This document shows positions 15,920 through 47,440 of a stretch of 64,000 nt of DNA, one piece after another. A program made the position numbers and the translations under genes. Source of the DNA: Schmidtea polychroa (Eukaryota). The DNA is taken from contig CM097885.1 in assembly GCA_044892525.1 (NCBI GenBank), positions 8,806,001-8,870,000 on the forward strand, given 5' to 3'. The notes under the pieces are model-generated. The model saw only the letters and a list, made by a program, of their open reading frames with translations. It was not told the DNA's origin and ran no database searches. Each line of letters starts with the position of its first letter. Position 1 is the first letter of the stretch.

Positions 15920-16284
15920 AGTAGTGTGTTTATATCCCTAACCAAAACAGCTGTACCAACAAAACATGCCTCCATTTCACTTAAACCATTAGAAAAACAA
16001 CCTAAAACTTATACTTTTATAGTATTTTAACCCTATATTTTGAAAACAACCACCCTTAATGGCCCTAACTGTTTTAATCTTTAAAGCCTCAAACTCAAAA
16101 GCTTCAAACTAAAAACATAAAGAGAATAGAAAAGAAAAAGGTATTATGAAAAAGTTAGAGGGCTATTTTGGTTAGGATATAAACACACTACTTGAGGCAT
16201 TGTTTTGATCGTAATCAAACTCCGGAGTTGATCTTTATCAGATTATTAATTTTAAATTATATAAATTAAAAAAATTTATGAAAA
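15920..16284 (+). repeat. Left TIR of element A (outer self-inverted module 15920-16192 plus inner part)
   Basis: 15920-15992 matches the reverse complement of 29873-29946, and 16203-16284 matches the reverse complement of 29775-29855. Contains palindrome aactccggagtt. Confidence 0.9.
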
Positions 16285-19200
16285 CAGGGTATCCAATAAA
16301 AATTTTTTTTCTAAAAATGAATTGTAATATTTGTAATAAAGTTTTTAAAAATAAAACTGGATTGATTTCTCACTGTAAATCGAAAGCTCACTTATTAAAA
16401 GCCAATAATCTTAATGCCACAAATTCAAAAGTTTGTCCTAAATGTAAAGGAAGATTTCTACATTCTGGATATAATAAAAATTTTGAAAATTGTATCGGGA
16501 AAATTAGAGAAATATTTACATGTTCTCACTGTAACTTTTCAACAAAAGTAAATTTCTATTATTTAGAACATATAAAAGAATGTAAAAATAAAAAACAAAA
16601 TTCTGACGATGAAGAATGTCATTCAGAAGGAGAACCTGATTGTGTTGAAAGAGAAAAATATAACTGGGATGATTTTAATCATGTAGATGAATTTCAATTA
16701 GAAATCAATGGACCTGCAATTCCTGGAGAATATATAAATAAAAATAAAACAAATATTAAAAATTCTTTCACTGAAGCTTTAAAAAATTATAAACCAACAA
16801 GGTATAATGTTATAAAATATAAAATTATAATCAAAGCAAAATATTGGAGAGGAGCAGAAGAAAACACAACTCCTTTAGATGTTGAAATTGGAATACCCTT
16901 TAAATATTTATTTTCAACTAAAGGATTTGATAAAAACATCAAAGAAATAATTCAAGTAGTAGAAGCAAAACAAGAAGAGGTTGAAAATGAATTAGGAGAT
17001 TCAATCTTAGTATTCAACTCTTTCCAAACTTTAGTGATTGATTATTGGAGAGGATTACCACCTAATCCTAAATCTTATATTCCTACACCCTTTACATCTA
17101 AAAATGTTATAAATGTACAGAATAATGATAACAAATGTTTTCAATGGTCAATACTTGCACATTGACATCCTCAAGAATCAAACCCTCAAAGAGTTTCAAA
17201 ATACAAACAATATGAAAATGAATTAATATTTCCCAAAGGATTCAAACATCCAATGAAACTAGAAGACATTCCAAAATTTGAAAGTTTAAATAATCTTAAA
17301 ATTAATATTTATGAACATGTTAAAAGTAGAGAAATTATTCCAATTTACATTTCTGATAGTGGAACCAAGGATAACGAACCCCAGGATAACCCTAGAGAAA
17401 TATATCTTTTAATCTTGGAACAACAAAATAATCAACACTATGTTTTAATAAAAAACTTTCAAGCTTTTACATCACCAGAGAATCCAACTAGTGGAGGAGG
17501 AACATGTAAAAGATGTCTTCATTATTCATCAACTAAAAACTCTATGAATAAACATACTAGATTTTGTGAAAAAGATGATCCAGCTTTAATTAAAATGCCT
17601 AATAATCCCAAGATGTATTTTAAAAACTTTTCAAATTTACTACAAACAGTAGGAGTGCTTTATGGAGACTTTGAATCTATAAATCGTAAACAAGATTTGG
17701 TTAAACAATATTTAAAAATAATAGAAAAAAATAAACTCATGGATTCATGGAACTCCTCAGGAGAGAAGATGAAACCAGAGAGGATGAAAGCCTTTCTAAG
17801 AAAAAGAAATAAACCTAATAGTGTTAAAAAACTAAACAATTACCATCTGCTTATAAATTATTATTTAAAAGTAATTATCCTGAACTCATAGAATCTAGAG
17901 AATATACATTTCAAGGAATTTCAGAAACAGAAGTCTTGAATCACTTTACTAAAAGTATAAATGATTTAGAACATGAAATATATAAAATATTAAAAACAAA
18001 CTATCCTCAAAATATTTCTAATCAACAACAACAAGAATATGAAAATACTTCCAACTGTTGGATGTGTAAACAAGACATTCTTCCTGATGATAAAGTTAGA
18101 GATCATGATCATTTTAAAAGTGAAAATAATTATCGAGGAGCAGCTCATAAACATTGTAATCTTAATTGTCATACTCCTAAATTTGTACTTGTTATATTTC
18201 ATAATCTTTTTGGTTATGACATACATCTATTTATTAAACATTTAGCAGCAAATGCTAAAAACTCTTTCAAAGTAATAGGACTTACAAAGGAAAAATATAA
18301 ATCAGTTGAATATGGAAAATTAAAATTTATAGACTCGTTAAACTTTCTCCAAATGTCTCTAGATGCAGTAGCAAAAACAATGAAACCAGAAGATTTTAAA
18401 ATCACTCGAGAATTCTTGGAAAAAAATAATATTCCTCTAGAAGAATATCCTACATGTTTAGCAAAAGGAATATATCCTTTTGACTATGTTGACTCGTTCG
18501 AAAGATATAATGAAACAAGTCTTCCTAGCCAAGAAGATTTCTTTTCACAACTTCAAAAATATCATATTACAAATCAAGAATATTCTCGAGCAAATAAAAT
18601 GTGGGAATTATTCAAGTGTAAAACTTTAGGAGAATATACAAGTATGTATTTATCCTTGGATGTTTATATTCTAGCAGATTGCTTTGAAGAATTTACAAAG
18701 TCTTTTGTTCTTAAACCTTACAATTATATAACAGCACCCTCTTTAGCTTGGGATACTTTATTATATACCATTTGGACTTCAAATATAGAAGAAGGTGATA
18801 AAATTATAGAGCTTTTAACCGACCTCAATATGTTTAACCAAATTAAAACAAACATTAGAGGAGGAGTCTCTTCAGTAATGGGGAATAGAGAAATAAAAGC
18901 TAGAAATGCAATAACTACTAGCCGAAGACTCTCTAAACACCCTAATGATCCATATATAAAAATTAACAATGAGGAATTAAAAGAATTGTTGGAAACAATG
19001 AAAAATCCTATATTTATACTTTATATAGATGCAACAGCTCTATATTCTGGTATAATGACTCAATATTTACCAATGGGTGATTTCACTGAAATATATCCTC
19101 CAGAGGGACTTCCAGAGGGACTTCCAGAGGATTCACTAAAGACTCTTGTAAAAGAAATACTTTCAACACCTAAAGATTCTCCAATAGGTTATTTTATAGA

Positions 19201-20641
19201 ATGTGACTTATTATATCCAGATGATATAAAATCAGGAACAAGATATTTTCCTTTAGCTCCTATAAGAAGAAGGGTTGATATCAACGAACTTTCTGAATGG
19301 CAAATCTCACAAAATAAACCCCCAACAATGAAACTTCTTTGTGATCAAACAGATCGAAGATTTTATCTTTGTCACTATAGACTCCTCCAATTTTACCTCT
19401 CACGAGGAATGATACTAAAAAAGATTCATAATGTCATAAGATTTAAACAGACTCCATTCATGAAAGCTTTTATCGAGGAGAACATTAGGTGTCGAAACAT
19501 TGCAAAAAGAGAAGGTAACCTTTTTAAAGATATGAATTGTAAACTTTTAAACAATTCAGTCTTTGGGAAAACAATGGAGAATGTTGATAAATATACTCAT
19601 ATTGAACTCCTAACAAATACTACCAAAGATATTAAGCGTTATAATCGTATGCTAGGAAAGCCTACATTTAAAAACGCACAAGTATTTTCTGAAAATCTTA
19701 CTGCAGTAGAACTAAAGAATTTTGAGAAAACATACAATAAACCAATATTTATAGGGTTTACAATTTTAGAACTCTCAAAATTACAAATGTATGAGACATA
19801 TTATAACATCTTTCAACCTATATATGGTCCTAATATATCAATGCATGCAATGGATACAGATTCAATGTTTTTAACAATAAGAACTCATGATTTACAAAGA
19901 GATATAGCTGAAAATCCTATACTTTCAAATTTAATAAATTCATCTGGAGAACTATTTTCATTTAAAGATGAAAAACCTTTTACTCCTATAGAAAATGGAA
20001 TATTTATTCGTGCTAAACAATATTCATACGAAACATTTACAAATCCTAAATTTGAAACTCGAAAAATTATAGTTAAAAACTTGGAGGGATTAGAGGAATC
20101 TTTTACATATAAATATCCTATATTCCCTGAAGAAGAAAAACCTGTAAAGGATAACAGATGTAAAGGAATACAGAAATCAGTTGCAAAGAATCTTTCTCAT
20201 CAAGATTATATAGATACATTAAACCCAGGTCATAAAGATAAAATTGATGAAGTGTATCAGATTAAAAGTGAAAAGCATGATATTCACTTGATAGAATCTC
20301 AAAAAGTATCATTATCAAATTATGATGATAAGAGATTCATACTAAGTGATTTAAAGACAACTCTACCTATTGGAAATAATTTAATCCCTATAATAAAAAA
20401 TCTAGAAAAGTTGAATAAGTTATATGATACAAATATTATCGATCTTGATATTTATAATGTTGAAATCATTTATCCCGAGAGAGAAATCGAGAAGCCTTTA
20501 TATTCTCAAGTTTTTAATCCTATATGTTTAGAACTTAAATATTTTAATACTGATCCTGAATATATAAAAGGTCTAAGTGATAAAGAATTTAAAGATCATA
20601 AATTAATGATTCAACAAGTACAGTCAATCTCAGTCAGTTAA
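16278..20641 (+). pseudogene. Element A protein-primed family B DNA polymerase with N-terminal zinc fingers; one nonsense codon and one frameshift
   Basis: CNIC..H..H finger, INVQNNDNKCFQWSILAH*HP (in-frame TGA 17163-65), YGDFES, RDHDH, FHNLFGYD, KGIYPFDY, YIDATALY, KLLNNSVFGK, MDTDS. Frameshift near 17830. Confidence 0.95.
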
Positions 20642-20972
20642 AGTTATTTTTTCCTTAAAAAAAATGTCAACAATGAAAATAGAAAATTAATTTTTATTAG
20701 TATAATAATCATCATTGGAATTTATTTATCTTTTAAATTTTTAAAAGATGGTATCATAATACTTCTTACTCCCTTTTTTAAAATGGTTTTCATAATCAGA
20801 TTCTTCCGATTCTTCAGATTCTTGTTCTAATCCAGAGACTAGGTTCCCAGGGGTTGGATTCCCAGGGGTTGGATTCCCAGAGGCTAAAAATTGAAGTCTC
20901 TTTCTTTTTATCCTTTAGGTCTTTATCCTTTAGGTCTTTTAAAAAATCAATCATTTTATAAATAAGAATTTT

Positions 20973-21551
20973 TCAATAAGAATTCTTTAACCATTTTTCC
21001 CGTTTAATTATTTTAGAATATTCATTAGTTATAACATTAGCACTTTTTAATTTATTAATATTATTTTTAATATCTTGTATTATTTGATTTGATTTCATTA
21101 TTTCATCATCACTCAAGATTCCATCTTCTAAAGCTTTTAATTGAAATAAAAATAATTTAGAGATTCCTAATTCTATTGACAAACAAACTTCACGATATAA
21201 ACTTTTCTTTTTAGAAGTATAAGATAATGAAACTATTTCAGTTAGGAAACCATCAGCTACAGAAATACTTCCAAGTATTACTGGTGCAATTGTTAAAACT
21301 GGTAAAGTTATAGGTAAAATAACTGTTAATATTGCAGATGCAAATCCTAAAGAATAACCTATAACTTTTAAAACTGTATTCCCTTTATTCCATCTATTTT
21401 TAATTTTTTTATAATGCTTTAATAAATCTTGTAAATGTAAGGTTTCTGATTTAAATTCTTTTACTCTCATAATTTCAAGTTCTGTGGGAGCCGAAGGTTT
21501 GGGGGAAGCTCTCAATTCTGGGTAAATTTTTTCTTCTCTTACTTCTTCCAT
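20973..21551 (-). CDS. Predicted membrane protein with N-terminal YPEL and PSAP motifs
   Basis: 192-aa ORF with a long central hydrophobic segment (VIGYSLGFASAILTVILPITLPVLTIAPVILG) flanked by helical regions. Confidence 0.8.
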   Translation of the reverse strand: MEEVREEKIYPELRASPKPSAPTELEIMRVKEFKSETLHLQDLLKHYKKIKNRWNKGNTVLKVIGYSLGFASAILTVILPITLPVLTIAPVILGSISVADGFLTEIVSLSYTSKKKSLYREVCLSIELGISKLFLFQLKALEDGILSDDEIMKSNQIIQDIKNNINKLKSANVITNEYSKIIKREKWLKNSY

Positions 21552-21559
21552 TTTAATAA

Positions 21560-22540
21560 TTAAAAAAATAAGACTTTATTCTTCTGAGCACCATCTGGTA
21601 CCAATACTCGGATATCAAAAGAAACTCTTGTTGAGAGAATGTCTTTATATAATTCCATCAACGCATTACGAACTCTGTCAACATCAACTTTTTTTTCATA
21701 AAATATTAAATCTATATATTGTACAAGTGTGCTTTTAAAAATAATATTCTTACTTTTAACTTTATGTAATCCATGCGAATGAGTATTAACATGCCAATTT
21801 TCGTGTGGTAAATTATAAGCAGTAATTATAACATCACCCTTTTCAAACTTACTATTATAATCACATTTCACAAACCATTTCATTCTTTCATTATCATCAT
21901 CAAATAAAAAGAAATAAGGATCAATAATCTTTACAACCATAAAAACACTCCATTCTTTACTATTTGTTGTTATTAAAGTTGGTTCTATAAAATGTTTATA
22001 TGTATGGGGTAATAATGTTTTATTCTGTTCTAATTCAGCAGCTGTTTTTCTAATACTATGTGTGGTGTTAATATGTGTTGTATGAGACTCTAAATTTGAA
22101 AGTCTTTTATTAAATGATGTAATCATCTCATTTATTATATTATATATTGTATTAATTTTATTATCCATAAGTTGTTTATGCATAAGTCTTTTATTTTTTA
22201 AAATTGATATTGTATCAGTTAACCTTTGAGTTTCTTCAGCTATCTTTTTAGCTTCTTCATTTAACTGGGTTTGTAATTTATTTATTTTAGATTCTAGTTT
22301 AGATTCTAAAGAATTATTAATATCAAGTTTTAAATCTTTGAGTTTGAGATCTACATATTTTTTATTTACTGCATCAAAATCATCAGTTGGATAAGCTAGT
22401 TCTTTTATCCTATGTCCATTTAAAATTAAATCTCCTTTCATGGAATCACCTTTTTCATTAATATATTTTTTTTCTGTTAAGCTTAAAACATCTTCATCTT
22501 TTAATCCTTCATTATATAAACCAAATTTATTATAATTCAT
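21560..22540 (-). CDS. Fibre/spike-like protein
   Basis: KGDSMKGDLILNGHRIKELAYPTDDFDAVNKKYVD resembles the trimeric fibre/YadA-stalk-type repeat. It is followed by a coiled coil and a beta-rich C-terminal domain. Confidence 0.7.
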   Translation of the reverse strand: MNYNKFGLYNEGLKDEDVLSLTEKKYINEKGDSMKGDLILNGHRIKELAYPTDDFDAVNKKYVDLKLKDLKLDINNSLESKLESKINKLQTQLNEEAKKIAEETQRLTDTISILKNKRLMHKQLMDNKINTIYNIINEMITSFNKRLSNLESHTTHINTTHSIRKTAAELEQNKTLLPHTYKHFIEPTLITTNSKEWSVFMVVKIIDPYFFLFDDDNERMKWFVKCDYNSKFEKGDVIITAYNLPHENWHVNTHSHGLHKVKSKNIIFKSTLVQYIDLIFYEKKVDVDRVRNALMELYKDILSTRVSFDIRVLVPDGAQKNKVLFF

Positions 22541-22631
22541 TTATTTACTAATAAAATCCTGATAGTTTAGCCTGACTAGGTTATCAATCCTCGATAGTTT
22601 AGCCTGGCTAGGTTATCAGACCTTGAAAATC

Positions 22632-23369
22632 CTATACCTGTCTTAAAGATAAACACATTGAAATCTTTTCTCCATTAAAACTAATCAATTCTCCGTTTTC
22701 ATCAACAATTTTAAAACTTATACTCATTATGTTTTTTCTACATATTGGTAAATAATTTGGAGGATTCATTCTTTGAACCATTTTATATCCAACTCTTACA
22801 ATGTTTGAAGGAAAAGAATATAAAATATTTGCATGTTTACCATTATTATATGAACCTGTTATACAATCACATTCAATATTTATAGAATTTGTATTTGTAA
22901 TCTGTATAATATTTTTAGATTTAAAGGTTCCAGAGGTTGTTCCAGGTGTATACTCTTTAGCTTCAAAACCTAAAATAGTATGAAAGAAACTAGAAGTATT
23001 AAAAGAAAGTCCAACATTTTTTAAAGTTAATATACATTTAGAGGTTTGAAAATCTGCTTTTATTTCTACATTTCCATTTGTTTCTTTTGAAATTACTTTT
23101 GCTAAATCTAAGATTTCATATGATCCAGGTTCAATTCGTATAATATTATTATTACTCTCAAGTATAAATTTATTATTATTAGAGTTTATATTAAAAATAG
23201 TATTAAAACATGAAAACCACAAGAGTCCTAATTCATAATTTAAATCTTTATCTAAATTTATTGAGTCTTCAAAATTTATAGTAAAATCTGATTCATTTGA
23301 ATTTATTAATAAACTTCTTGAATATTTATTAGACATTATGTTTACCATTTTTTTTAAATCATCTTCCAT
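22632..23369 (-). CDS. Minor capsid protein (penton)
   Basis: SDFTINFEDSINL..YELGL; IEPGSYEI; INIECDCITGSYNNG...ILYSF; ISFKIVDENGELISFNGE. Confidence 0.85.
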   Translation of the reverse strand: MEDDLKKMVNIMSNKYSRSLLINSNESDFTINFEDSINLDKDLNYELGLLWFSCFNTIFNINSNNNKFILESNNNIIRIEPGSYEILDLAKVISKETNGNVEIKADFQTSKCILTLKNVGLSFNTSSFFHTILGFEAKEYTPGTTSGTFKSKNIIQITNTNSINIECDCITGSYNNGKHANILYSFPSNIVRVGYKMVQRMNPPNYLPICRKNIMSISFKIVDENGELISFNGEKISMCLSLRQV

Positions 23370-23377
23370 TTATTATA

Positions 23378-23881
23378 TCAAACTTTCAGACTTTCAGAGA
23401 TTAAAGGTTCTAAACTATTATAAATTTCTTGGATTATAGATTTAAAATCTTGATCTCTATTTAGTTTATAAAGGACATATAAACTTAAAATACCACATAT
23501 TTTAGTATTATTAGGTTGAACTTGTATATTATTAAAAGTATAATCTTTGGAACAACCTTTGGAGGAACCTTTGGAAGTCCCTACGGAAGTGTCCCTAGAC
23601 TCAAGATAGTCTTGTACTTCTTTAGTAGGTTTAATACCAAAAGAATCAAAGTATATAGACTTGTGGAATGAATCTTGAAATATACAAACCCAATGAGATC
23701 CTTTTTCATTTGAATTTTGATAGTTTATAATAATATTATTCTTTTTAGTTTTTCCAATCTTGTATAATTCATCATTCATTAATATTTTAATTTTTAAATT
23801 TAAATAATCTGCATAATCTTTCAAATCAAAATTTGTTTTTTCATTTATTTCAAAAGTTTTTAAAAAATCTAGTATAGACAT
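23378..23881 (-). CDS. Adenain-like cysteine maturation protease
   Basis: GSHWVC, YFDSFG, QVQ...ICG (His/Asp/Gln/Cys catalytic set). Confidence 0.92.
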   Translation of the reverse strand: MSILDFLKTFEINEKTNFDLKDYADYLNLKIKILMNDELYKIGKTKKNNIIINYQNSNEKGSHWVCIFQDSFHKSIYFDSFGIKPTKEVQDYLESRDTSVGTSKGSSKGCSKDYTFNNIQVQPNNTKICGILSLYVLYKLNRDQDFKSIIQEIYNSLEPLISESLKV

Positions 23882-23934
23882 TTCTATATTTAAAACTTTG
23901 TATCTTTAGACTTTGTATCTTGAAACTTTATATC

Positions 23935-24768
23935 TTAAAACTTTGTATACTTTAAAAATTTATCTTTTGTAATCATTCCTTGATTTAATAATTCTTTTGA
24001 AATCTTTAAAATATCAGAATTTAAATTATTATGTCCTGCTTTTTTAGCTCCTAATAATTTTCTTAATTCAATAAAAAGATTGATAGGATTATTGAACCCC
24101 TTACCTTTGAACTTTGTACCTTTGAACTCCGTACCTTTGAACTCCGTACCCTCTGTAACAATATAACCCCTTTCATTTTTATTCTTTAACTCTTGAATAT
24201 ATTTTGAATTTGAACTAGCTCCTATTAATTTCATTAAACTTAAATATTTTTTAATTTCATCTGAGGAATCATCCTCTAGGGGATATCCACAAATTAATCT
24301 TAAAAAAACATCTGAAAATTCAAGGTTTAAATGTTTATTATTATAAACATTTTGTGAACGAATGTGTGAATTATTTTCTGGATCTAAATATAAAGTAAAG
24401 TTTTGTTTATTAATTGTTATTATTTGATATCCATGATCATTAATAATAAATGAGGGTTTAATTGAAGGACTCAAACCTTGATTAATTTTAGGATCAACGA
24501 TAAGAGGTTTCATCATCTCAAGGGGCTCTAATTAAAAAGGTTGTTCCAGGGGTTTTAATCCTGAAGGTTTTAATTCTAAAGGTTTTAATCCCAAAGGTTG
24601 TTCCAAAGGTTTTAAAGTCTCTATGGCTTTAATGGTTGGTTGTTGTTGTTGCATCATCACTTCATTTAATATCAGAGATTCATTCTGTAGGTTTAAATTT
24701 TTTTTATTATAGTTGTTTTGTTCAGATTGTAATTTTTTTAAAAGAGCCAACCTTTCTTCATATACCAT
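23935..24768 (-). pseudogene. Polinton uncharacterised protein; two in-frame ORFs split by one TAA at 24532
   Basis: ORFs 24532-24768 and 23935-24516 share a frame and read LKPLEQPF*LEPLEMMKPL across the stop. C-terminal LLGAKKAGHNN resembles a motif common in Polinton core ORFs. Confidence 0.65.
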
Positions 24769-24790
24769 TTTTATACCATTTTTATACCAT

Positions 24791-25321
24791 TTATACCTCC
24801 CAGGGTTTCAGGTATAATCCTATACCATTTTTAGTTTTACACATGCACCCATTTTTTAGGGATTTACATATTTTTTTAAAATCCTCTTTATCCTTTGGAG
24901 ATAAAGAATTAGATGATGAAATTTGATTCTTTAAAAAATCATTTAAACCTCTACCTTTATAAGGATCAAGATAAAGACCTTTTCCAACGGACCCTTTCCC
25001 CTTCTTCTTCATTGAATCGATTTCAGTTTGTAGTTTTTCTTTTTCTAGGTCTGTCTTTTGAGATTCTTTAGCTTTTTGAACTGTAGTTGCAATTCCTCCA
25101 GCTATTCCAGCAGCACCTGATAAACCAGCAATGATTGCAGGTATTAAAGCAGCTAATGGAAGAAAACCACCCTCTTTAGCTTGCTCCTTCTGTCGCTCTT
25201 TAACTTGTTCCTTTACATGTTTTCCAATAAAATATTTTTTACCATCAATTACTACTGATTTACTTTTATTTGAATTTATTAATTCTTGCAAAGATTCCTC
25301 CGAAGGTTCCCATGTTGTCAT
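24791..25321 (-). CDS. Adenovirus pX(mu)-like virion core/membrane-active precursor
   Basis: GGFLPLAALIPAIIAG resembles the adenovirus pX C-terminal GGFLPALIPIIAAAIG motif. Repeated GxG-L motifs. Confidence 0.75.
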   Translation of the reverse strand: MTTWEPSEESLQELINSNKSKSVVIDGKKYFIGKHVKEQVKERQKEQAKEGGFLPLAALIPAIIAGLSGAAGIAGGIATTVQKAKESQKTDLEKEKLQTEIDSMKKKGKGSVGKGLYLDPYKGRGLNDFLKNQISSSNSLSPKDKEDFKKICKSLKNGCMCKTKNGIGLYLKPWEV

Positions 25322-25337
25322 TTTTTAAATAATAAAA

Positions 25338-26128
25338 ATGGATACTTGGAAACCAATTTTAACTCGACACAAGAGTAAATTTAATAATAAGGTATTTCCT
25401 GATAATTTTAGATTATTAATTGTTGGATCTTCTGGATGTGGCAAGAATGTACTTCTTTTGAGGATGTTACTTGAAGATGCTTTTCTAGATTATAATAATT
25501 TAATATTTTATTCTACAACCATTAATCAACCGGAATTACAACTTTTGAAATGTGGATTTGAAAATAAATTAACTAAAAAAGGAATGATTGACATTTTTAA
25601 ACATCAAGAGGAGTGTCCTAAAGAAGTTTTTCAACCTTGTGATATGGTAGACTGGTACAAGGAAAAGATCATGGAATCGGATATTAATAATAAAAATGAT
25701 TATATCTGCGAGAGCCAAGGTGAGACAATTCAAGTTTATTCTCTAATAAACCTGAAGATGTAATACATTGTGATTTACTTCCTAGAAATAAAAAGAATTT
25801 AGTTATATTTGATGATGTTGTCAACATGAAAAACCAAGAGATTCAAAAGAGTTACTTTACACGAGGACGGCATAATAATTGTAATGTTATTTATATATCT
25901 CAAACTTATTATGCTTTGGATAAAAACTCTATAAGAAATAATTCCAATTGTTTTATATTTTTTAAATTAGATCGACGGGACAAGAATATGATTTATAATG
26001 CTTTATTTTCAAATGTTGAACCTGATAAGAATATGTTTGATATGTTTGTAGATAATCATTGGAAAGAAAAATATAATTATATTTATTTGGATAGAGAAGA
26101 AGCTGAAATATGGAAAAGTTTGTTTTAG
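25338..26128 (+). pseudogene. A32/FtsK-like genome packaging ATPase, frameshifted near 25730
   Basis: Walker A IVGSSGCGKN; Walker B LVIFDD at about 25800 in the second frame; FTRGRHNN, ISQTYY, IRNN. Confidence 0.92.
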
Positions 26129-27537
26129 AAATCTGTTTTCTGTAGTTCATTATTATAAAATCTACCTAATATTTTTTCATTATTTAAATCAAAGATGCTA
26201 TATGTTATTGGAGTTGTATATTGTATTTTATTTATAATAAAAATTTCATTTGTCCATTTTTTTGTGAATCCTTTTTCAAATTTATTTTTATATGTAAATA
26301 TTCTTACTCGGTCACCAATTTTAAACTTTGGTTTTTCAATAACATCATTTTCAATATTTACCACTTTAATGGTTTCAGGCTTCAAGGAAGCATTTAAAGG
26401 TGTTGATTTTATAGAACTATGAACATCATTATTATATTCATTTACAATCTTTTGTAACAATTCATTGTTCCATTTTTGTTTTCCAATAGCAGTAAAATAT
26501 TTCCACATTTTATTTTTTAATGTTCTATTTAATCTTTCAACTACGACTGGTTTTCCTTCGTTTTCTGTTGAATATAATTTAATATCATTTTCATTTAAAA
26601 ACTTTGTAAAAACTTTGTTATAAAATTCTGTTCCTTTATCACACCATAAATATTTTGGAATTCTTTGATATTCTTCAAATATATTTTCAAATGCTTCTGT
26701 AATGGAATATCCTGTTTTATTTTCTAAACATCTTGCAAAAGCAAATCTTGTATATAAATCTCTTACTGTTAAAATTATTTTATATTTTTCAGGGTCTGAT
26801 GATTTGCGCATAAAGACTAAATCAGCAGACCATGTTTGATCTTTTTCATGTACTTGAACTTTTAAATATTTTTTATTTTTTCTAAATTCATGGTGTAATT
26901 CCTTTGCATATTTTATTTCTGATTCTGTTGGGGTTTGTAAACTAGTCTTGGCTGTACTCTCGAGGGATCTTTCAATCTCTGCTTGTTCGATAATCTTTTT
27001 ATAAGCAACATCTTTTGCTTTCCTAGGAAGTCTTGCACCCATGGTGATCGGACTGTGTCCTAAGCCTATGAAAATCTTACCTTTCATTGCTAATTTAACT
27101 AGAGCTCTTTGAATCTTTTCTTGGGTTGATGGATTTTGGATACTATTTAAATCATGTATTAAATTCACATCTGCAACATGTCTATCTCTAAGATTTGTTG
27201 AATTGTATGCAATGTCATGTTTTAAAGCTGCTTGATCAATTCTATTTATTGGTTCTTCTCCTTGTTTGGGATTATTATTTTCATCTAATCTAATATCTAG
27301 ACGTGTTCCTGGTCCAGTATAGTTGTGTTTAAATAAATGTCTTTCACCTGGATATTTTTCTGTAGTAAAAGGTTTTAATATTGAAGATGTTGTTTTTGAA
27401 GATTGCAAATCGCCTCCAGCTCGTGGAATTAGGTCACCTACTGTATGTTTTTTAGTTTTAAGATGACTTGCTTTATGATGTCTTGTAACTTGACAATTAC
27501 AAGTTTCACATCTCCAATAGGGTTTATTTAAAGACAT
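26125..27537 (-). CDS. Zinc finger + parvovirus-type phospholipase A2 + RVE integrase fusion
   Basis: CETC...HLKTKKH; NYTGPGT...RIDQAALKHDIAY...RHVAD; DDE triad WSADL, WCDKGTEF, VVERLNRTLK; PKFKIGDRVRI. Single uninterrupted 470-aa ORF. Confidence 0.93.
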   Translation of the reverse strand: MSLNKPYWRCETCNCQVTRHHKASHLKTKKHTVGDLIPRAGGDLQSSKTTSSILKPFTTEKYPGERHLFKHNYTGPGTRLDIRLDENNNPKQGEEPINRIDQAALKHDIAYNSTNLRDRHVADVNLIHDLNSIQNPSTQEKIQRALVKLAMKGKIFIGLGHSPITMGARLPRKAKDVAYKKIIEQAEIERSLESTAKTSLQTPTESEIKYAKELHHEFRKNKKYLKVQVHEKDQTWSADLVFMRKSSDPEKYKIILTVRDLYTRFAFARCLENKTGYSITEAFENIFEEYQRIPKYLWCDKGTEFYNKVFTKFLNENDIKLYSTENEGKPVVVERLNRTLKNKMWKYFTAIGKQKWNNELLQKIVNEYNNDVHSSIKSTPLNASLKPETIKVVNIENDVIEKPKFKIGDRVRIFTYKNKFEKGFTKKWTNEIFIINKIQYTTPITYSIFDLNNEKILGRFYNNELQKTDF

Positions 27538-27554
27538 TTTAAAATGTTAAAATA

Positions 27555-28847
27555 TTAAGAATCTCCCCTAACATTTTCAATAATTGAAATCTTTCCACCA
27601 TATAATTTCATTTCTATTTTCTTTTCTTCTAATATTAATGTATATACTTTAGCTTTAAAATTAGAATCCTTTGTTACATGAAGTGTAACATCAACATTAT
27701 TTATGGCTAATCGATCATCTTGGTCTGATACATTTATACAAAATATAGAATATAAATTTTTGAAATCTTCTAGACTTAATTGTGGTTCAACTTTAAAATC
27801 ATGACATGTTTCAATATAATTTAGATATGGGAATATGTTTTCATTTTTTTCAATATTAAATTCCATTTTATTTATAGGATAATAGGAATTATTTAATTGA
27901 ATTTGAATTGTTTTTAAATTATCATCTTGAATCTTTTGAATAAATAGATTGTTATTTTTTTGGAAAGATGAATCTGTTTCTTTGAATCCAATCAAGATAT
28001 ATCTTGGTCGGTATGCTAAATTTGCTACCTTTATAGAATATGTTGAACCCTCTGTCATACTAAATTCACTACAGATTCTATTTAAATAATTTACATTTAT
28101 AGACTTGTTGGAATTTAATCTTTCAAGGAGTTTAATCTCAGAATGTGGGTTTAATGTCCATTCAGGTATATGTAATTCAAGTGTTGATAATTTTAATTTA
28201 GCTTTTGTATCTACAGCTCCATAGAACAATCTTTTATCACCTTCTACTCTATTACAGATGAATTCTATAAAAACATTATGAAGTATACGATTATAGTTTT
28301 GAAGGAATCCAAACAAGTGTTTTAATTCAAAATAACCTTCAAATTTTTTAGATTTATAAAGTTCAGCTCTTTTATGGTAACCATGGTTTACATCTAAACC
28401 ATCTTTATCTAAATCCCCTTTATTAACATCAGGAATCCAACCTGTTAATTCACCATATTCGTTTTTATAATCACAACCAGTCAAAATAAAATTTAACATT
28501 GTAGAATATACTCCCGGATGCAAAACAGTTTCAATTTCTGATGATCCTAGTTTTAATCTCATGTTGGAGAATAAATTTGGAAAGAAATTATTTTCTAGGG
28601 TTATATCTTTGTTTGCTTCAATTTCTAATTCTACTTTGTAATATAATTTGGCATTACAAATATCTATTGGGTTTGATGTTTGAAGAGATTGAAAAACTAT
28701 ATCACCCCTACGATTTAAGTTTGCAATAGATCCTGAAGTTGGCGAGATTTTTAAAATATCATTTTTTTTAATTTCATGAGTAAATTCTTTATTATAATCA
28801 AGATTTAATTTATTTTTTTCTTGAATTTTAAGATTTATATTATTCAT
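27555..28847 (-). CDS. Major capsid protein (double jelly roll)
   Basis: About 430 aa from the AAAATG start at 28847; NNFFPNLFSNMRLKLGSSEIE, LKHLFGFLQNYNRIL, RPRYILIGF, YSIFCINVS. Confidence 0.88.
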   Translation of the reverse strand: MNNINLKIQEKNKLNLDYNKEFTHEIKKNDILKISPTSGSIANLNRRGDIVFQSLQTSNPIDICNAKLYYKVELEIEANKDITLENNFFPNLFSNMRLKLGSSEIETVLHPGVYSTMLNFILTGCDYKNEYGELTGWIPDVNKGDLDKDGLDVNHGYHKRAELYKSKKFEGYFELKHLFGFLQNYNRILHNVFIEFICNRVEGDKRLFYGAVDTKAKLKLSTLELHIPEWTLNPHSEIKLLERLNSNKSINVNYLNRICSEFSMTEGSTYSIKVANLAYRPRYILIGFKETDSSFQKNNNLFIQKIQDDNLKTIQIQLNNSYYPINKMEFNIEKNENIFPYLNYIETCHDFKVEPQLSLEDFKNLYSIFCINVSDQDDRLAINNVDVTLHVTKDSNFKAKVYTLILEEKKIEMKLYGGKISIIENVRGDS

Positions 28848-28933
28848 TTTTATATATAAAAGTTGATAAAAATAAAAGTTGAAAAATAAAAATAAAAATA
28901 AAAGGGAATTCAATAAAAAAATAATTTATAAAA

Positions 28934-29155
28934 ATGATTGACTTTATTGAAAGAATGAGAAATGAATTGAATGAAGTTAAACTTAAGAGAATAAAAAGAA
29001 GAGAAGAAGAACCATTAGAATACATTAAAGAGTTGGTGGTAGAGAATGAAAAGTATCGACATTTTTACATGAATGCAGTAGAAGTAGCTGAGAAAAGATT
29101 AGATAAAATAAAACAATTACAGGAAAGAATAAAAGAACTTGAATCGATTATTTAA
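28934..29155 (+). CDS. Small charged coiled-coil protein
   Basis: 73-aa E/K/R-rich ORF with an AAAATG start, divergent from the capsid gene. Confidence 0.55.
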   Translation: MIDFIERMRNELNEVKLKRIKRREEEPLEYIKELVVENEKYRHFYMNAVEVAEKRLDKIKQLQERIKELESII

Positions 29156-29174
29156 AAAAATGACAAAAAATCCA

Positions 29175-29258
29175 GACCTTGATGGCGCAGTGGGCTAGAC
29201 TCACACAGTGGTTCAAAATGCTAGCGGTTCAAATCACATCTGAGGTTAGTTTTTTTTT
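29175..29258 (+). ncRNA. tRNA-like RNA polymerase III unit 1
   Basis: A box TGGCGCAGTGG, B box GGTTCAAATC, end pairing GACCTTG/TGAGGTT, T9 terminator at 29250-29258. Anticodon stem does not form properly. Confidence 0.7.
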
Positions 29259-29421
29259 CAACATAAAATAATATTAAAAATTTGAAAATAATATTGAAAA
29301 TAGTGTGGGTATCTTATATTTATAAAGTACTTGTATATTTTATTTTATTTATTTTATTTTATTTTATTTTTTTATTAATTAATTATTTTTAAAACATAAA
29401 TATGAAAAAAAAAATATTGAA

Positions 29422-29501
29422 ACGGGTGATGGTGGCGAACCGGTAATTATCCCCACCAGTCTTTCGAACACACCCGGATCGATCCCTTTCTCAGTTGTTT
29501 T
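29422..29501 (+). ncRNA. Candidate Pol III unit 2
   Basis: A-box-like TGGCGAACCGG (29433-43), B-box-like GGATCGATCCC (29476-86), TTTT at 29498. Stems GGGTG/CACCC and TGGTGG/CCACCA. Confidence 0.45.
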
Positions 29502-29710
29502 CGGACCTCTTTCGGATTCGCTTTCGAATTCATTTGTACTTTCGAGCAGCACACTTAAAACGCCGATGAAATCGTATTCGAGCGAGAAGCGAATAATAAG
29601 GTGTGCTGCTATTATCGAATTGATTCTGATTATGAGCCTGGCCAGCTTGTATATTGGAAGAGATTTGATAAACGAAAGAGGTTGAATAAAAAAAAATGAT
29701 CCGGATCAAA

Positions 29711-29769
29711 AAAACTGTTGAGAGGACAGTGAAAAAAAAAAAATACCACTGTCCTCTCAGAGCAGTTTT
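29711..29769. other. Stem-loop adjacent to the right TIR
   Basis: Perfect 13-bp stem tgagaggacagtg/cactgtcctctca, extended by aaaactg/cagtttt, with an A-rich loop. Confidence 0.8.
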
Positions 29770-29774
29770 ACTAT

Positions 29775-29946
29775 TTTTCATTTATTTTTTAATTTATATA
29801 ATTTAAAATCAATATTCTGATAAAGATCAACTCCGGAGTTTGATTGCGATCAAAAGTAGTGTGTATATAGCCCTAATGGTTTAAGCGTAATGGAGGTATG
29901 TTTTTGTTAGGAGGGCTGTTTGGGTTGGGTATATAACCACACTACC
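29775..29946 (-). repeat. Right TIR of element A (internally shortened relative to the left)
   Basis: gatcaactccggagtttgattgcgatcaaa followed by agtagtgtg...cacactacc. Confidence 0.9.
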
Positions 29947-36449: not shown

Positions 36450-38653
36450 TCATCGAAAATAATCATGTCCAAAATAATTATCATCTGCTGGATCATGGAA
36501 ATCATCTGGATCATCTGCTGAGACAGCTTCTGTTGAATCTATAAATATATCGGTGTCACCTCCCCTATAATGGCCATATGCCAAACTTTGAATTTTATCC
36601 ACCCAATTTCGCTTATCATCTCTACATGTCAAGGCTCTTTTATTATTTTTAATACCAAAAAGTTGGTGATTTTTCGATGTTATTCTAAATTGAGGGACTG
36701 TGTATATTTTATCGTTTAAATAACAATCTAGATACGACTGATGTGTTAGTCCCTTAGCCTTCATACTTTCATCATCACCCATTAAACTGTAACATTTAGG
36801 TCTCAAGAATACCCAATCTTCATATAATAAACCTTTATTCTCGTCTTTGAATTTACCAATGACAGAATCAAGGTTCCTCCTATATAAAGGATGATTTGGG
36901 TCAAAATTCGAAGTATCTAATAATTGATCTCTAATCATCGCAGGTAAAAGAATGTCAAGACTACAATGTTTAATTGCCAAGAAGAAGGAATCTCTGTCCG
37001 CAGAAACAATATTAATTTCGCAGTTGAATTCGTCGCGATATTTTTGCAACTGTTCATACTGCTGCTGGTACATCCTGAGTTTGGATAAATCTAGTACAGT
37101 TTGAGCAATGTAACTAGGTCTATTCAAACAGATACAATATTTCCTCAATAAAACCGAAATCAGGTCATCATCTATTTTCGTGGATTTTCGAAAAGTTGGT
37201 TTCGAACAGAATGTTAATAATTTCTGTGAAGAATTACACAGACGTAAATTAATACGTTTTTTTAAGATTTTCAACTGTCTTGCCGTAAAAGACTGTTGTT
37301 TAATAATTTATAAAAATTTTTATCAAGTTTATTTCTCGGCGCTGCTCGTAACACCGTATTTGTGTTAATATAATTTTTGAAAATTTTATCTTGTTTAAAT
37401 TTAATTGCTCTATGAGTTTTTGATATTTTAACACCTAATTTAATAAATATTTGCAGAAGCCTCCAATGAAGAACGTAGTTCATCTTGGGGCTGTGTGTAA
37501 GCAACATCTTCTCTATTTTCGAACCCGGTACACACATCTTTTCAGCGGCAACGGGAAGATCGTCCAGTTTGTCGTGAATTGACGTCGGTATTTCTAAATC
37601 CACGTCTATGGTATAACCATAATCAAGTAGATCTAAATCTACCGTTGTGCACTCAACAATTATATTATTTAATAAATTATCATCTGTAACCCATTAAAAG
37701 TCAGTGCAAGGTAATGGTTGACTTAAAGCCCAACCATATAAATTATTTATATCTATGTAAAGCAAAGCGGTATCCATCATGTAATCAAAAAGTGAAGTAA
37801 ATGAAGTTTCAAGCCAAATTCTCTGAGCTGTCTCATATTCAGCGGGAGTCACATCTTTCCAAATAGGAGGTAACTGACGAGTGTTATGCAAAACCTCTAA
37901 TGAAGTTGTGGCATCATAAGAAAAAAATCTCTTTGCAGTTATTATTGTACCCTGAAATTCTGATTCGGTCAAGGGTAAAGATGATAAAGTTTTGACAGCA
38001 TTATTTAAAAACTCGCTTACAAATTGATAAGAGTCTATAAATTTAACGGTTAATGAGTCAATCCTAGCAAAAAGACTAAGAAATTTCTCGCTGGTTAAAG
38101 GAATACAGCTTATATTCCATGAATGATATTTTGAAAGGCCAAATTTCAAGATATGATGCAGATCATAACCCTTTAAATTATGAAATACTACAGGAAGGAT
38201 ATGTCTAATTTGCCTTGACAGATTACAAACCGTACAAGCGGCACCAAGATATAGACCGGTAAAATATTCATTGTCCTTAACTGGGCTAACTGAAGGCTTA
38301 TTGCACAAATAACATGATGTGCTGTTTGCAAACATTAATTGTTGTTCATCTGTAATTATCATTTTCTTTTGATAATGTTTATAATAATAAGGTGTTACAA
38401 TATATTTCCCTATCATTTCAATTTCAGTAAGAAATTGATCGACGCAATCTAAACCGGTGAACGAGTTATTAATTTTTACGCCGGTAAAATTATTAATAAA
38501 AAGCATATCAGCAGAAATAAGCAGATGACGTTGAAAGTAGCGAGTGTCTTTAGGTAAGATAGCCTCAAAGTCGGTGTAAATAACAAACGGAGGAGTGACT
38601 GTTTTACTCCAATCAGTAAATTCTAAATATTTATTTTTAGGCAATGTATACAA
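36450..38653 (-). pseudogene. Family B pPolB fragment B3, unit 1
   Basis: YTDFEA, FHNLKGYD, YIDINNLYG, KLLNNSL, SADRDS (degenerate DTDS). Internal deletion, stop and frameshift. Confidence 0.92.
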
Positions 38654-38830
38654 TGCCTTTATTACTCAGTGCTTTGTTACTTTGCACTGTGCATGCACTG
38701 AACATGTAATAGTATGACATAATAATTTTAAACATAAAATAATAATATTTAACAAATAATAATAATATTTTTTAAATTAATTATATATCTTTGTCAACAA
38801 ATAAAAAACAAATGATACAGTATACATTTA

Positions 38831-39220
38831 TTAAGCATCAAATTTTTTATACAACAACCATGCCAAACAGTGTTGACCGCATGTTTGAGTCAATGGATTT
38901 TGAAACATAGTTTTATTATATACAATAGCTTTCCCAATTGTTTGCAGTTTAGATATCAACAAAGTAGGATAATAGAAACCCATAGGATCGAATACGAATA
39001 TATCACTAGGTTTCACACATATAGCTATCCAATGTTCTCCACCAAGATGATACGAATGAGTATTGACGATTACGGCTTGATTATTGCTCAAATAAGCAAT
39101 TTTATCGATAGGAAAAACTCCTAAAAATTCATTTCCTAATATTTGTTTTCCGATTTTATTGACCTGAACAGAACTACTTAAATAAATCCAGAGTATAAAA
39201 AACAACTTACTCCATGACAA
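38831..39220 (-). CDS. Family B protease, a/b chimera (identical copy at 42291-42680)
   Basis: 5' part matches the 35371 variant and 3' part matches the 45751 variant. Confidence 0.85.
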   Translation of the reverse strand: MSWSKLFFILWIYLSSSVQVNKIGKQILGNEFLGVFPIDKIAYLSNNQAVIVNTHSYHLGGEHWIAICVKPSDIFVFDPMGFYYPTLLISKLQTIGKAIVYNKTMFQNPLTQTCGQHCLAWLLYKKFDA

Positions 39221-39909
39221 CTTTTTGGTGTTTCTGTATACATTTATACCAACACTGTTCTATTTGCAGTAATTTGAACTTCATTTTCAAATACTCCATA
39301 TATTATAACATCTACTGGTTCAGTAATAGCTTTTGCAAACTTTATATCCAGTCGTAAATTTCCATTTTGTGATAGTTGACTCTGATTTAAATCAAACTCG
39401 GGGGCTAAAACAAATGTGAAAAATGGGTATTTGATTTTACATTCTTCAAGAGTTATTCCACAATTCAAGTTTTTATCTAAATAAATCAGATTTCTAACAA
39501 TACTTTGCATATATGTAGCACAGTAATTATCACTTTCGAAATCTTGAGTATATGTTTCTCTATATTCATACTTTTTAAATATATTACGTTGCGTTATTTT
39601 AATTTTAAATATATTTTAAATACTTATTTTGACGCTAAAGTCGACAGAAAAAAATTATTGCATATACTTTGCACATACTTTGCAATATTATTATTATTAT
39701 ATATAGTCTGAGTTTATCCGACAAGATATTCTGTCCCCCTATGGGTACTGCTTACAAAGGTACTGCTAAAAAATATTCAAGGCAAAACTTTAACATATTA
39801 TTATTACACACACACACACACATATAATGTATAAAAAATTGTTCACAAAGGTACTGCTAAAAAACTCAAGGCAATAAAATCAATACATTTATTAAATAAT
39901 TTAACCACA

Positions 39910-42113
39910 TCATCGAAAATAATCATGTCCAAAATAATTATCATCTGCTGGATCATGGAAATCATCTGGATCATCTGCTGAGACAGCTTCTGTTGAATCT
40001 ATAAATATATCGGTGTCACCTCCCCTATAATGGCCATATGCCAAACTTTGAATTTTATCCACCCAATTTCGCTTATCATCTCTACATGTCAAGGCTCTTT
40101 TATTATTTTTAATACCAAAAAGTTGGTGATTTTTCGATGTTATTCTAAATTGAGGGACTGTGTATATTTTATCGTTTAAATAACAATCTAGATACGACTG
40201 ATGTGTTAGTCCCTTAGCCTTCATACTTTCATCATCACCCATTAAACTGTAACATTTAGGTCTCAAGAATACCCAATCTTCATATAATAAACCTTTATTC
40301 TCGTCTTTGAATTTACCAATGACAGAATCAAGGTTCCTCCTATATAAAGGATGATTTGGGTCAAAATTCGAAGTATCTAATAATTGATCTCTAATCATCG
40401 CAGGTAAAAGAATGTCAAGACTACAATGTTTAATTGCCAAGAAGAAGGAATCTCTGTCCGCAGAAACAATATTAATTTCGCAGTTGAATTCGTCGCGATA
40501 TTTTTGCAACTGTTCATACTGCTGCTGGTACATCCTGAGTTTGGATAAATCTAGTACAGTTTGAGCAATGTAACTAGGTCTATTCAAACAGATACAATAT
40601 TTCCTCAATAAAACCGAAATCAGGTCATCATCTATTTTCGTGGATTTTCGAAAAGTTGGTTTCGAACAGAATGTTAATAATTTCTGTGAAGAATTACACA
40701 GACGTAAATTAATACGTTTTTTTAAGATTTTCAACTGTCTTGCCGTAAAAGACTGTTGTTTAATAATTTATAAAAATTTTTATCAAGTTTATTTCTCGGC
40801 GCTGCTCGTAACACCGTATTTGTGTTAATATAATTTTTGAAAATTTTATCTTGTTTAAATTTAATTGCTCTATGAGTTTTTGATATTTTAACACCTAATT
40901 TAATAAATATTTGCAGAAGCCTCCAATGAAGAACGTAGTTCATCTTGGGGCTGTGTGTAAGCAACATCTTCTCTATTTTCGAACCCGGTACACACATCTT
41001 TTCAGCGGCAACGGGAAGATCGTCCAGTTTGTCGTGAATTGACGTCGGTATTTCTAAATCCACGTCTATGGTATAACCATAATCAAGTAGATCTAAATCT
41101 ACCGTTGTGCACTCAACAATTATATTATTTAATAAATTATCATCTGTAACCCATTAAAAGTCAGTGCAAGGTAATGGTTGACTTAAAGCCCAACCATATA
41201 AATTATTTATATCTATGTAAAGCAAAGCGGTATCCATCATGTAATCAAAAAGTGAAGTAAATGAAGTTTCAAGCCAAATTCTCTGAGCTGTCTCATATTC
41301 AGCGGGAGTCACATCTTTCCAAATAGGAGGTAACTGACGAGTGTTATGCAAAACCTCTAATGAAGTTGTGGCATCATAAGAAAAAAATCTCTTTGCAGTT
41401 ATTATTGTACCCTGAAATTCTGATTCGGTCAAGGGTAAAGATGATAAAGTTTTGACAGCATTATTTAAAAACTCGCTTACAAATTGATAAGAGTCTATAA
41501 ATTTAACGGTTAATGAGTCAATCCTAGCAAAAAGACTAAGAAATTTCTCGCTGGTTAAAGGAATACAGCTTATATTCCATGAATGATATTTTGAAAGGCC
41601 AAATTTCAAGATATGATGCAGATCATAACCCTTTAAATTATGAAATACTACAGGAAGGATATGTCTAATTTGCCTTGACAGATTACAAACCGTACAAGCG
41701 GCACCAAGATATAGACCGGTAAAATATTCATTGTCCTTAACTGGGCTAACTGAAGGCTTATTGCACAAATAACATGATGTGCTGTTTGCAAACATTAATT
41801 GTTGTTCATCTGTAATTATCATTTTCTTTTGATAATGTTTATAATAATAAGGTGTTACAATATATTTCCCTATCATTTCAATTTCAGTAAGAAATTGATC
41901 GACGCAATCTAAACCGGTGAACGAGTTATTAATTTTTACGCCGGTAAAATTATTAATAAAAAGCATATCAGCAGAAATAAGCAGATGACGTTGAAAGTAG
42001 CGAGTGTCTTTAGGTAAGATAGCCTCAAAGTCGGTGTAAATAACAAACGGAGGAGTGACTGTTTTACTCCAATCAGTAAATTCTAAATATTTATTTTTAG
42101 GCAATGTATACAA
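39910..42113 (-). pseudogene. Family B pPolB fragment B3, unit 2
   Basis: Translations identical to 36450-38653. Confidence 0.92.
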
Positions 42114-43369
42114 TGCCTTTATTACTCAGTGCTTTGTTACTTTGCACTGTGCATGCACTGAACATGTAATAGTATGACATAATAATTTTAAACATAAAAT
42201 AATAATATTTAACAAATAATAATAATATTTTTTAAATTAATTATATATCTTTGTCAACAAATAAAAAACAAATGATACAGTATACATTTATTAAGCATCA
42301 AATTTTTTATACAACAACCATGCCAAACAGTGTTGACCGCATGTTTGAGTCAATGGATTTTGAAACATAGTTTTATTATATACAATAGCTTTCCCAATTG
42401 TTTGCAGTTTAGATATCAACAAAGTAGGATAATAGAAACCCATAGGATCGAATACGAATATATCACTAGGTTTCACACATATAGCTATCCAATGTTCTCC
42501 ACCAAGATGATACGAATGAGTATTGACGATTACGGCTTGATTATTGCTCAAATAAGCAATTTTATCGATAGGAAAAACTCCTAAAAATTCATTTCCTAAT
42601 ATTTGTTTTCCGATTTTATTGACCTGAACAGAACTACTTAAATAAATCCAGAGTATAAAAAACAACTTACTCCATGACAACTTTTTGGTGTTTCTGTATA
42701 CATTTATACCAACACTGTTCTATTTGCAGTAATTTGAACTTCATTTTCAAATACTCCATATATTATAACATCTACTGGTTCAGTAATAGCTTTTGCAAAC
42801 TTTATATCCAGTCGTAAATTTCCATTTTGTGATAGTTGACTCTGATTTAAATCAAACTCGGGGGCTAAAACAAATGTGAAAAATGGGTATTTGATTTTAC
42901 ATTCTTCAAGAGTTATTCCACAATTCAAGTTTTTATCTAAATAAATCAGATTTCTAACAATACTTTGCATATATGTAGCACAGTAATTATCACTTTCGAA
43001 ATCTTGAGTATATGTTTCTCTATATTCATACTTTTTAAATATATTACGTTGCGTTATTTTAATTTTAAATATATTTTAAATACTTATTTTGACGCTAAAG
43101 TCGACAGAAAAAAATTATTGCATATACTTTGCACATACTTTGCAATATTATTATTATTATATATAGTCTGAGTTTATCCGACAAGATATTCTGTCCCCCT
43201 ATGGGTACTGCTTACAAAGGTACTGCTAAAAAATATTCAAGGCAAAACTTTAACATATTATTATTACACACACACACACACATATAATGTATAAAAAATT
43301 GTTCACAAAGGTACTGCTAAAAAACTCAAGGCAATAAAATCAATACATTTATTAAATAATTTAACCACA

Positions 43370-46589: not shown

Positions 46590-46748
46590 TAGGAATGTGT
46601 TGTACACGAATGTAAAATCTTGCAGTGCAACTTCTCAGTCACTATTTAAAGAAATCGGATTCTGGAGATTGACCATAAATTTGCTGGCCTGATTATCTGG
46701 ATGAATTAATGGGCAACTATTGCTTGGTAAAATAGTATAAAAATTCAC
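46590..46748 (-). pseudogene. Family B penton N-terminal fragment, fused by deletion to the capsid remnant
   Basis: Manual translation NFYTILPSNSCPLIHPDNQASKFMVNLQNPISLNSD*EVALQDF matches the Polinton penton start FYxxLPSN...WEVAL. Confidence 0.8.

Positions 46749-47372: not shown

Positions 47373-47440
<68 letters not shown>

Follow-up and report, generated by a model that had tools for sequence, protein, structure and literature searches.

The window analysed here is a stretch of 64,000 nucleotides from Schmidtea polychroa (contig CM097885.1, positions 8,806,001 to 8,870,000), and it contains a whole Polinton/Maverick copy whose features are collected in Table 1. The arms of its inverted ends form two pairs, matching at 84% and 93%, with the termini AGTAGT. 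A 6-bp target duplication is a feature of Polintons/Mavericks, and here 4 of the 6 bases agree, judged by eye. AGTAGTGTG and its reverse complement enclose each of the two ends (15920-16194 and 29856-29946), giving it the look of a small unit with inverted termini of its own. From the flanking frames, we infer that the copy sits within the PolB gene of another Polinton family. It has a C5 protease, an A32 ATPase and a double jelly-roll capsid. The protease carries the motifs GSHW, FDSFG and Q..CG; the identity of protease and ATPase, whose Pfam scores are below the cut-offs, is backed by motifs and by BLAST to related loci. The frames of protease, capsid and PLA2-integrase are open; those of PolB and ATPase are broken, and this copy may be silent. 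A weak partial PF03175 match hints at the divergent adintovirus class. The Adeno_PX match falls on a separate ORF, and the PLA2 studied here is followed by the integrase, not by a pX-like domain.

Table 1. Features of the Polinton copy (positions in the window; residues refer to the 470-aa ORF; ↓ marks a candidate cut)
Feature	Position	Strand	Evidence
Whole Polinton/Maverick copy, about 14 kb	15920..29946	.	inverted repeats beginning AGTAGT
Protein-primed PolB, three frames (broken here)	16278..20641	+	DNA_pol_B_2 E 5.9e-15 at 18062-20641
C5-family cysteine protease, intact frame	23378..23881	-	Peptidase_C5 E 4e-4, just under cut-off
pX-like core protein	24791..25321	-	Pfam profile match; without PLA2 domain
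A32-like packaging ATPase, two frames (broken here)	25338..26128	+	Pfam, under curated cut-off
PLA2-integrase ORF, 470 aa: finger - PLA2 - linker - integrase	26125..27537	-	translation, Pfam
rve integrase, D239/D300/E334, C-terminal beta domain, without chromodomain	26128..26925	-	Pfam, AlphaFold, fold matches
Variable linker, in frame, without slippery heptamer in this copy	26926..27057	-	alignment; place of the -1 shift of relatives
Downstream candidate site K154-x-x-h-G158-L↓G160 (IGLG-H, 157-161), end of last PLA2 helix	27055..27078	-	alignment, AlphaFold
Parvovirus VP1u-type PLA2 domain, about residues 64-157	27067..27348	-	Pfam, fold matches
Upstream candidate cleavage site RAGG↓D, residues 39-43	27409..27423	-	segment with pLDDT below 50
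Putative C2H2-type finger (C10, C13, H25, H31)	27445..27510	-	sequence pattern
Feature next to the PLA2-integrase ORF	27555..28847	-	E 9.6e-26

What does the long ORF encode? The preliminary description had read it as one intact frame joining a C2H2-type finger, a VP1u-type PLA2 and a DDE integrase, with no chromodomain, unlike the family B integrase, and most of this reading is borne out. The 470-aa frame has no internal stop. Residues 67-148 match Phospholip_A2_4 (E 4.4e-9) and residues 230-322 match rve (E 5.9e-11), both above the curated cut-offs. The features of a parvovirus-type PLA2 (PF08398), namely the calcium loop Y-x-G-P-G, the HD dyad and the downstream Asp, are all present (Y73-T-G75-P76-G77, H107-D108, Y111, D123), and the integrase triad is complete. 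The finger fared less well: residues 1-40 have no Pfam family match, and it is seen as a Cys/His pattern which AlphaFold models as a hairpin plus helix. The pattern is common to 11 homologs, two of which weakly match C2H2 families (E 0.08-0.1). As for the chromodomain, no Pfam match was found in the ORF at E<=1.

The AlphaFold model, built with 37 alignment rows, has a mean pLDDT of 83.6 and a pTM of 0.52, and pLDDT falls below 50 in segments 34-54 and 160-170, which is the expected picture for domains joined by flexible tethers. In fold searches the whole model resembles foamy-virus and other retroviral integrases. For the PLA2 part the nearest fold is a rice PLA2 with a middling score (Z 7.5, rmsd 4.2, 92 aligned), and the top matches include entomopoxvirus and densovirus PLA2s. 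Reads on the ORF point to a very high-copy family, no single piece covering it whole, and no common indel at the PLA2-integrase junction was found among the read matches listed. One contig, from a run only guessed to be RNA, covers 26992-27094, and expression is not thereby proven.

Breadth of the fusion and frames at its junction

Is the fusion a peculiarity of this locus? The homolog search matched 499 proteins, and the counts below rest on the best 120 listed, with the query counted in row tallies. Since the search was limited to lengths of 258-823 residues and ranked fusions first, these counts give breadth, not frequency. In a test set beforehand of whether the fusion is open elsewhere, both catalytic sets (PLA2 H/D/D and DDE) proved to be kept in 113 of the 120 listed homologs, which are divergent (39-91% identical), and 108 bear both Pfam labels; indeed the PLA2 + rve architecture is already visible in precomputed Pfam labels. 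The fusion, as judged from these sequences, is thus not specific to the window locus. A chromodomain label is found on 28/120, together with PLA2 on 27/120, so that the missing chromodomain, true as it is of the window ORF, does not set the fusion apart. Among the listed homologs, 11 have a C2H2-like N-terminal extension, 12 have C4/DUF5679, and the rest neither; on these alignments the finger may be absent or exchanged for another type (C2H2, C4/DUF5679 or none). Of 104 loci (L001-L104), 32 have the PLA2 either fused to the integrase or immediately ahead of it, 10 carry it as its own gene, and in the other 62, many of them short, no PLA2 was seen. A single-protein scan of viral contigs gave no match.

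The frames were broken at the PLA2-integrase junction in a number of these 104 loci. The mapped breaks comprise 16 -1 shifts in 14 loci, five +1 shifts and three stops. In the -1 loci the shift lies directly after the Gly site at the end of the PLA2, the integrase frame being -1 relative to that of the PLA2. An in-phase slippery heptamer (X XXY YYZ), most often A AAA AAC, lies within the frame overlap in 11 of the 14, and a canonical heptamer is missing in the other three. As background, 19 heptamers occur in 3618 integrase codons, and none in 10 delimited in-frame linkers, the one in the window among them; L001 and L041 were left out of this linker control (scanned segment reaching the core; no motif). 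The integrase frame has no Met ahead of its first conserved (ELH) motif in 11 of the 14 -1 loci and has one in three, and unlinked integrases mostly have a Met there. L038 and L064 have perfect stems, set 5 and 7 nt past the heptamer (z -4.2), these stems coming from five loci picked after a first hairpin survey. For all 11 heptamer loci the mean z is -1.2, vs -0.4 to 0 in segments further downstream. The integrase tree groups 9 of the 12 -1 rows with three in-frame rows in a single clade of support 89; the window lies within a clade of 19 in-frame rows, and 7 state changes are required. The heptamers, the missing Met and the two strong hairpins together suggest a gag-pol-like programmed frameshift in the relatives, and we consider it probable from these sequences that programmed -1 frameshifting is real in at least some lineages. 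The occurrence of -1 joins in many relatives strengthens the parallel with retroviruses.

One might argue instead that the -1 junctions of the relatives are decay or homopolymer assembly errors, and that the in-frame fusion is the sole real form. There are A-runs at the junctions of the -1 clade, +1 and stop junctions also occur, and a strong hairpin is absent in 8 of the 11 heptamer loci (strong in 2 and moderate in 1-2, in a search for simple hairpins). Moreover, one multi-copy family (P0454-P0466, P0468-P0495) with a long A-run includes full in-frame fusions as well as 173-aa PLA2-only frames ending after a poly-Lys junction, and since both forms are found there, A-run indels do occur in these elements. 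Against this, among 11 loci broken at the junction and nowhere else, 10 are -1 and one is +1; the three copies of L062 are all -1; the 24 A/T runs of at least 6 in the same integrase frames are all unshifted; A6 runs are in slippery phase at 7 of 9 junctions vs 4 of 19 inside integrase frames; and the two strong hairpins stand at the correct spacing (5-9 nt downstream). We hold indels and errors to be the main competing explanation, a live one with roughly one chance in four, and it would touch the relatives alone, leaving the in-frame fusion of the window as it is.

A search with a DNA pattern for the shifted junction gave 0 matches. At L064:1395-3007(+) the PLA2 is linked to a different integrase type through a -1 slippery site followed by a hairpin of 9 bp, possibly a join of independent origin.

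Glycine motifs on either side of the PLA2

The second place where the preliminary description made specific claims is the pair of Gly motifs, RAGG↓D and IGLG-H, which were said to bracket the PLA2 and to resemble the GG-F and GxG-L motifs of the pX-like ORF, with adenain named as an enzyme that cleaves at Gly-containing sites. They do bracket it, both adjoin the segments of pLDDT below 50, and both are conserved. At the downstream site K154 and G158 are invariant in the 120 listed rows, and from G158 on there are 95 GxG, 11 GG-x, 4 GGG, 9 G-x-Ala/Ser and 1 other, so that GG↓x or Gx↓G is found in 110/120, compared with a background of 16 GG/GxG in 3618 integrase 8-mers. The linker that follows, from G158 to E213, varies in sequence as well as in length (6-55 residues in 119 of the 120 listed rows, 253 in one). 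At the upstream site, the 86 listed homologs with an extension have GG in 65, GxG in 3 (together 68/86) and neither in 18, and 26 further listed homologs begin with Met at the same Asp/Ile position as the upstream cut. In stand-alone Polinton PLA2s the downstream motif is terminal in 9 of 10, the tenth being truncated.

The likeness to adenain sites holds in part. According to the available text of PMC4246237, the cleavage consensus of adenain is (M/I/L)XGG↓X or (M/I/L)XGX↓G, and the spacing GG↓x / Gx↓G fits; the Met/Ile/Leu rule at P4 does not carry over, this residue being Lys/Arg in 86 of the 120 listed rows and Phe in the window copy. The sites thus match the looser virophage pattern: cleavage by the mavirus protease falls at GG↓X and GY↓G, in the portion of PMC6048507 at hand, and the downstream site shows such a substrate pattern, an exposed stretch with GG↓X or GX↓G. 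It is likely, on these patterns, that the C5 protease of the element cuts the PLA2-integrase at both Gly sites. Across the proteins of the element overall, GG/GxG shows no enrichment over Gly content; in the pX-like protein, where Gly content alone predicts 3.7 such motifs, there are six.

PDB alignments of parvoviral VP1 end before the Gly site, and for this reason small viral contigs were taken as controls. Of 32 such contigs 31 were aligned and 2 of these were truncated, leaving 29 complete PLA2s from contigs without a detected protease, which are short and may be incomplete. Some mollusc database proteins lack the motif at G158; as these may be spliced gene models, they were excluded. GG/GxG at the aligned position was found in 0/29, the first Gly (G158) alone in 13/29, and a GxG three residues further on in 5. 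Because of these counts G158 by itself may be a helix cap, and the second Gly goes with protease-bearing elements, as far as the control sequences tell. Many of the 2.3-3.5-kb viral contigs L117-L126 and L130-L160 have a stand-alone PLA2 related to that of Polintons, with no protease detected.

Could the fusion stay whole, K-x-x-h-G-x-G being a structural or membrane-binding end of the PLA2, which would then anchor the uncut integrase to the core or the membrane? G158 indeed caps the last PLA2 helix in the AlphaFold model and recurs in the protease-free controls, P4 is unlike the adenain consensus, and several PLA2 frames stop a few residues from the motif. The swap between GG and GxG, which gives a Fisher value of 3e-7 by row count, is not significant on independent tree pairs (3 same, 1 opposite, 2 unchanged; p 0.625). 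Yet the second Gly is lacking at the aligned position in 29/29 controls, the upstream GG falls where shorter homologs have their Met start, and the same GxG is found at 4/4 in-frame protease-integrase joins, where no PLA2 fold requires the motif, as well as between PLA2, pX and protease modules. An uncut fusion is thus unlikely in our judgement, at roughly the odds of one in five, and cleavage at the two Gly sites is the reading we carry forward.

The protease-integrase joins are the C5 in-frame fusions at L012:2740-4248, L046:274-1803, L060:128-1471 and L068:535-1899 (all +), with two integrase types. At L010:471-1502(-) and L005:340-1338(-) a PLA2, a pX-like segment and a protease are in one frame with GG/GxG between the modules.

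A proposed packaged precursor compared with known systems

How might the integrase travel with its element? We propose, with a probability of about 0.7 and on sequence grounds, that the PLA2-integrase is a precursor packed via its PLA2 half and cut by the C5 protease at the two Gly sites. The preliminary description had likewise proposed an integrase packaged with the entry enzyme and released by the element's protease, and this reading is supported in part. First, the PLA2 would be a virion core protein, as with the stand-alone Polinton PLA2X. Second, the integrase would enter the particle as a C-terminal extension of the PLA2. Third, maturation would cut at GG↓D43 and L↓G160, leaving the PLA2 with the N-terminus seen in homologs that start Met-Asp-Ile, and the integrase with one like that of stand-alone integrases. 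Fourth, and in the relatives only, a -1 shift after the Gly site would likely yield much PLA2 and little PLA2-integrase, in the manner of Gag and Gag-Pol; in its counterpart, the clade of the window would yield PLA2 and integrase 1:1, in frame. The freed PLA2 would then breach the endosome on entry, and the freed integrase would insert the genome.

The entry role of the PLA2 is drawn by analogy with parvoviruses (available text of PMC4642659 and PMC8502044), which lends some room to the idea that the enzyme, expressed from the integrated copy, acts in egress or in host signalling and that the fusion only co-ordinates expression. Sites of maturation-protease type on both sides of the PLA2 and its linkage to pX elsewhere favour a virion core protein, and we find egress or signalling quite improbable. 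Least credible of all is that the relatives splice out a short spliceosomal intron at the -1 junctions or that the integrase has its own start, for which a Met in the integrase frame at 3/14 loci could speak, since 11/14 have none and an in-frame GT..YAG of at least 25 nt sparing the first integrase motif exists in 2/14 only, the gap being 17-62 nt.

In retroviruses and LTR retrotransposons, the integrase is made as the C-terminal extension of a structural protein in Gag-Pol, in frame or by a -1 shift, and is released by the protease. The precursor proposed here is alike in that the integrase is a C-terminal extension of a carrier protein, in frame or -1, with putative release by a protease. 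It differs in that it belongs to a DNA virus with a jelly-roll capsid, its carrier is an entry enzyme rather than Gag, and the protease is a separate C5 cysteine protease; beyond the rve fold, the likeness reflects convergence and not homology. Whether the Gag-Pol design has arisen by convergence in a large group of animal Polintons, with the integrase as the tail of the entry phospholipase, -1 or in frame, and freed by the protease at G-x-G, while others use the protease as carrier, we would put at even odds from the sequences.

Mavirus offers a precedent both for packaging an integrase and for cuts of the GG↓X / GY↓G kind. Among its virion proteins are the integrase MV02 and MV13, a predicted hydrolase that is split and has a GK↓G site, in the portion of PMC6048507 at hand. 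Common to both systems are a clan CE protease, GG↓X and GX↓G sites, cut in mavirus and candidates here, and an integrase together with a hydrolase, found in virions there and encoded here. In mavirus, though, the two are separate genes, the hydrolase is of alpha/beta type and not a PLA2, and the same portion describes no frameshift. The parvovirus VP1u PLA2 (PF08398) has the calcium loop, HD and D in common with the window PLA2; it is tethered to a capsid protein, and in PDB alignments the similarity stops before the last helix and the Gly site.

Among Polintons, a PLA2 is known as a separate gene from the available text of PMC8502044, PMC5803895, PMC4642659, PMC3671162, bioRxiv 10.64898/2026.06.19.733378 and PMC11296320. 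The PLA2X of adintoviruses (Alpha, Mayetiola-class; PMC8502044) and the 'CAP' of the Sf Maverick (PMC5803895) are, in these partial texts, parvovirus-type PLA2s of Polintons with protease, ATPase and capsid, and they share the K-x-x-h-G-x-G end with the window PLA2. In the same text, PLA2X stands as a gene of its own with a pX-like C-terminus, apart from the integrase; in the window, by contrast, PLA2 and integrase are joined, while the pX-like gene lacks a PLA2. The adintovirus integrase has a C-terminal chromodomain (accessible part of PMC11071296), which the window protein lacks. That part of PMC11071296 proposes -1 frameshifts for Penton and Hexon-Adenain only, which is the same idea in other genes, and mentions no PLA2-integrase join.

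Neither the PLA2-integrase fusion nor a frameshift at its join appeared in the openly readable article texts searched; an earlier record of the fusion may exist in Repbase, in GenBank annotations, in subscription papers, in bioRxiv supplements or in figures. Term searches of the available text of PMC11131425, PMC11161782, bioRxiv 10.1101/2023.08.22.554363, PMC2836005, bioRxiv 10.64898/2026.10.13.758929 and PMC4061559 did not find the fusion. Polinton particles have not been observed, according to the abstract of PMC8097293. A conserved join of entry enzyme and integrase flanked by protease sites is sequence evidence for the integrase as virion cargo, and it bears on how Polintons move between cells and hosts. 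If the Gag-Pol-like reading is true, the integrase travels in the particle and the elements integrate upon entering a new cell. If the frameshift is true, such a shift ahead of the integrase would make a DNA virus a clear example of convergence on gag-pol, and many annotated 'broken' Polinton integrase genes are predicted to be intact. Candidate substrates of the Polinton protease and short junctions for frameshift reporters are supplied here, both testable without virus.

Other parts of the window hold further repeats and Polinton remains. A second-family integrase at 46745-47710 (-) is broken, with a chromo-like end (E 9.2e-5, below the cut-off) and an ATT run inside its core. Near the second-family Polinton genes lies a TRAF/MATH-domain ORF (49131-49589, -; E 1e-21), possibly Polinton cargo. 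Three near-identical tandem units of 3460 bp each, with PolB fragments, occupy 36450-45426, and positions 83-1355 and 5544-6816 form an inverted repeat of 1273 nt, 99% complementary, with a spacing of 4188 nt.
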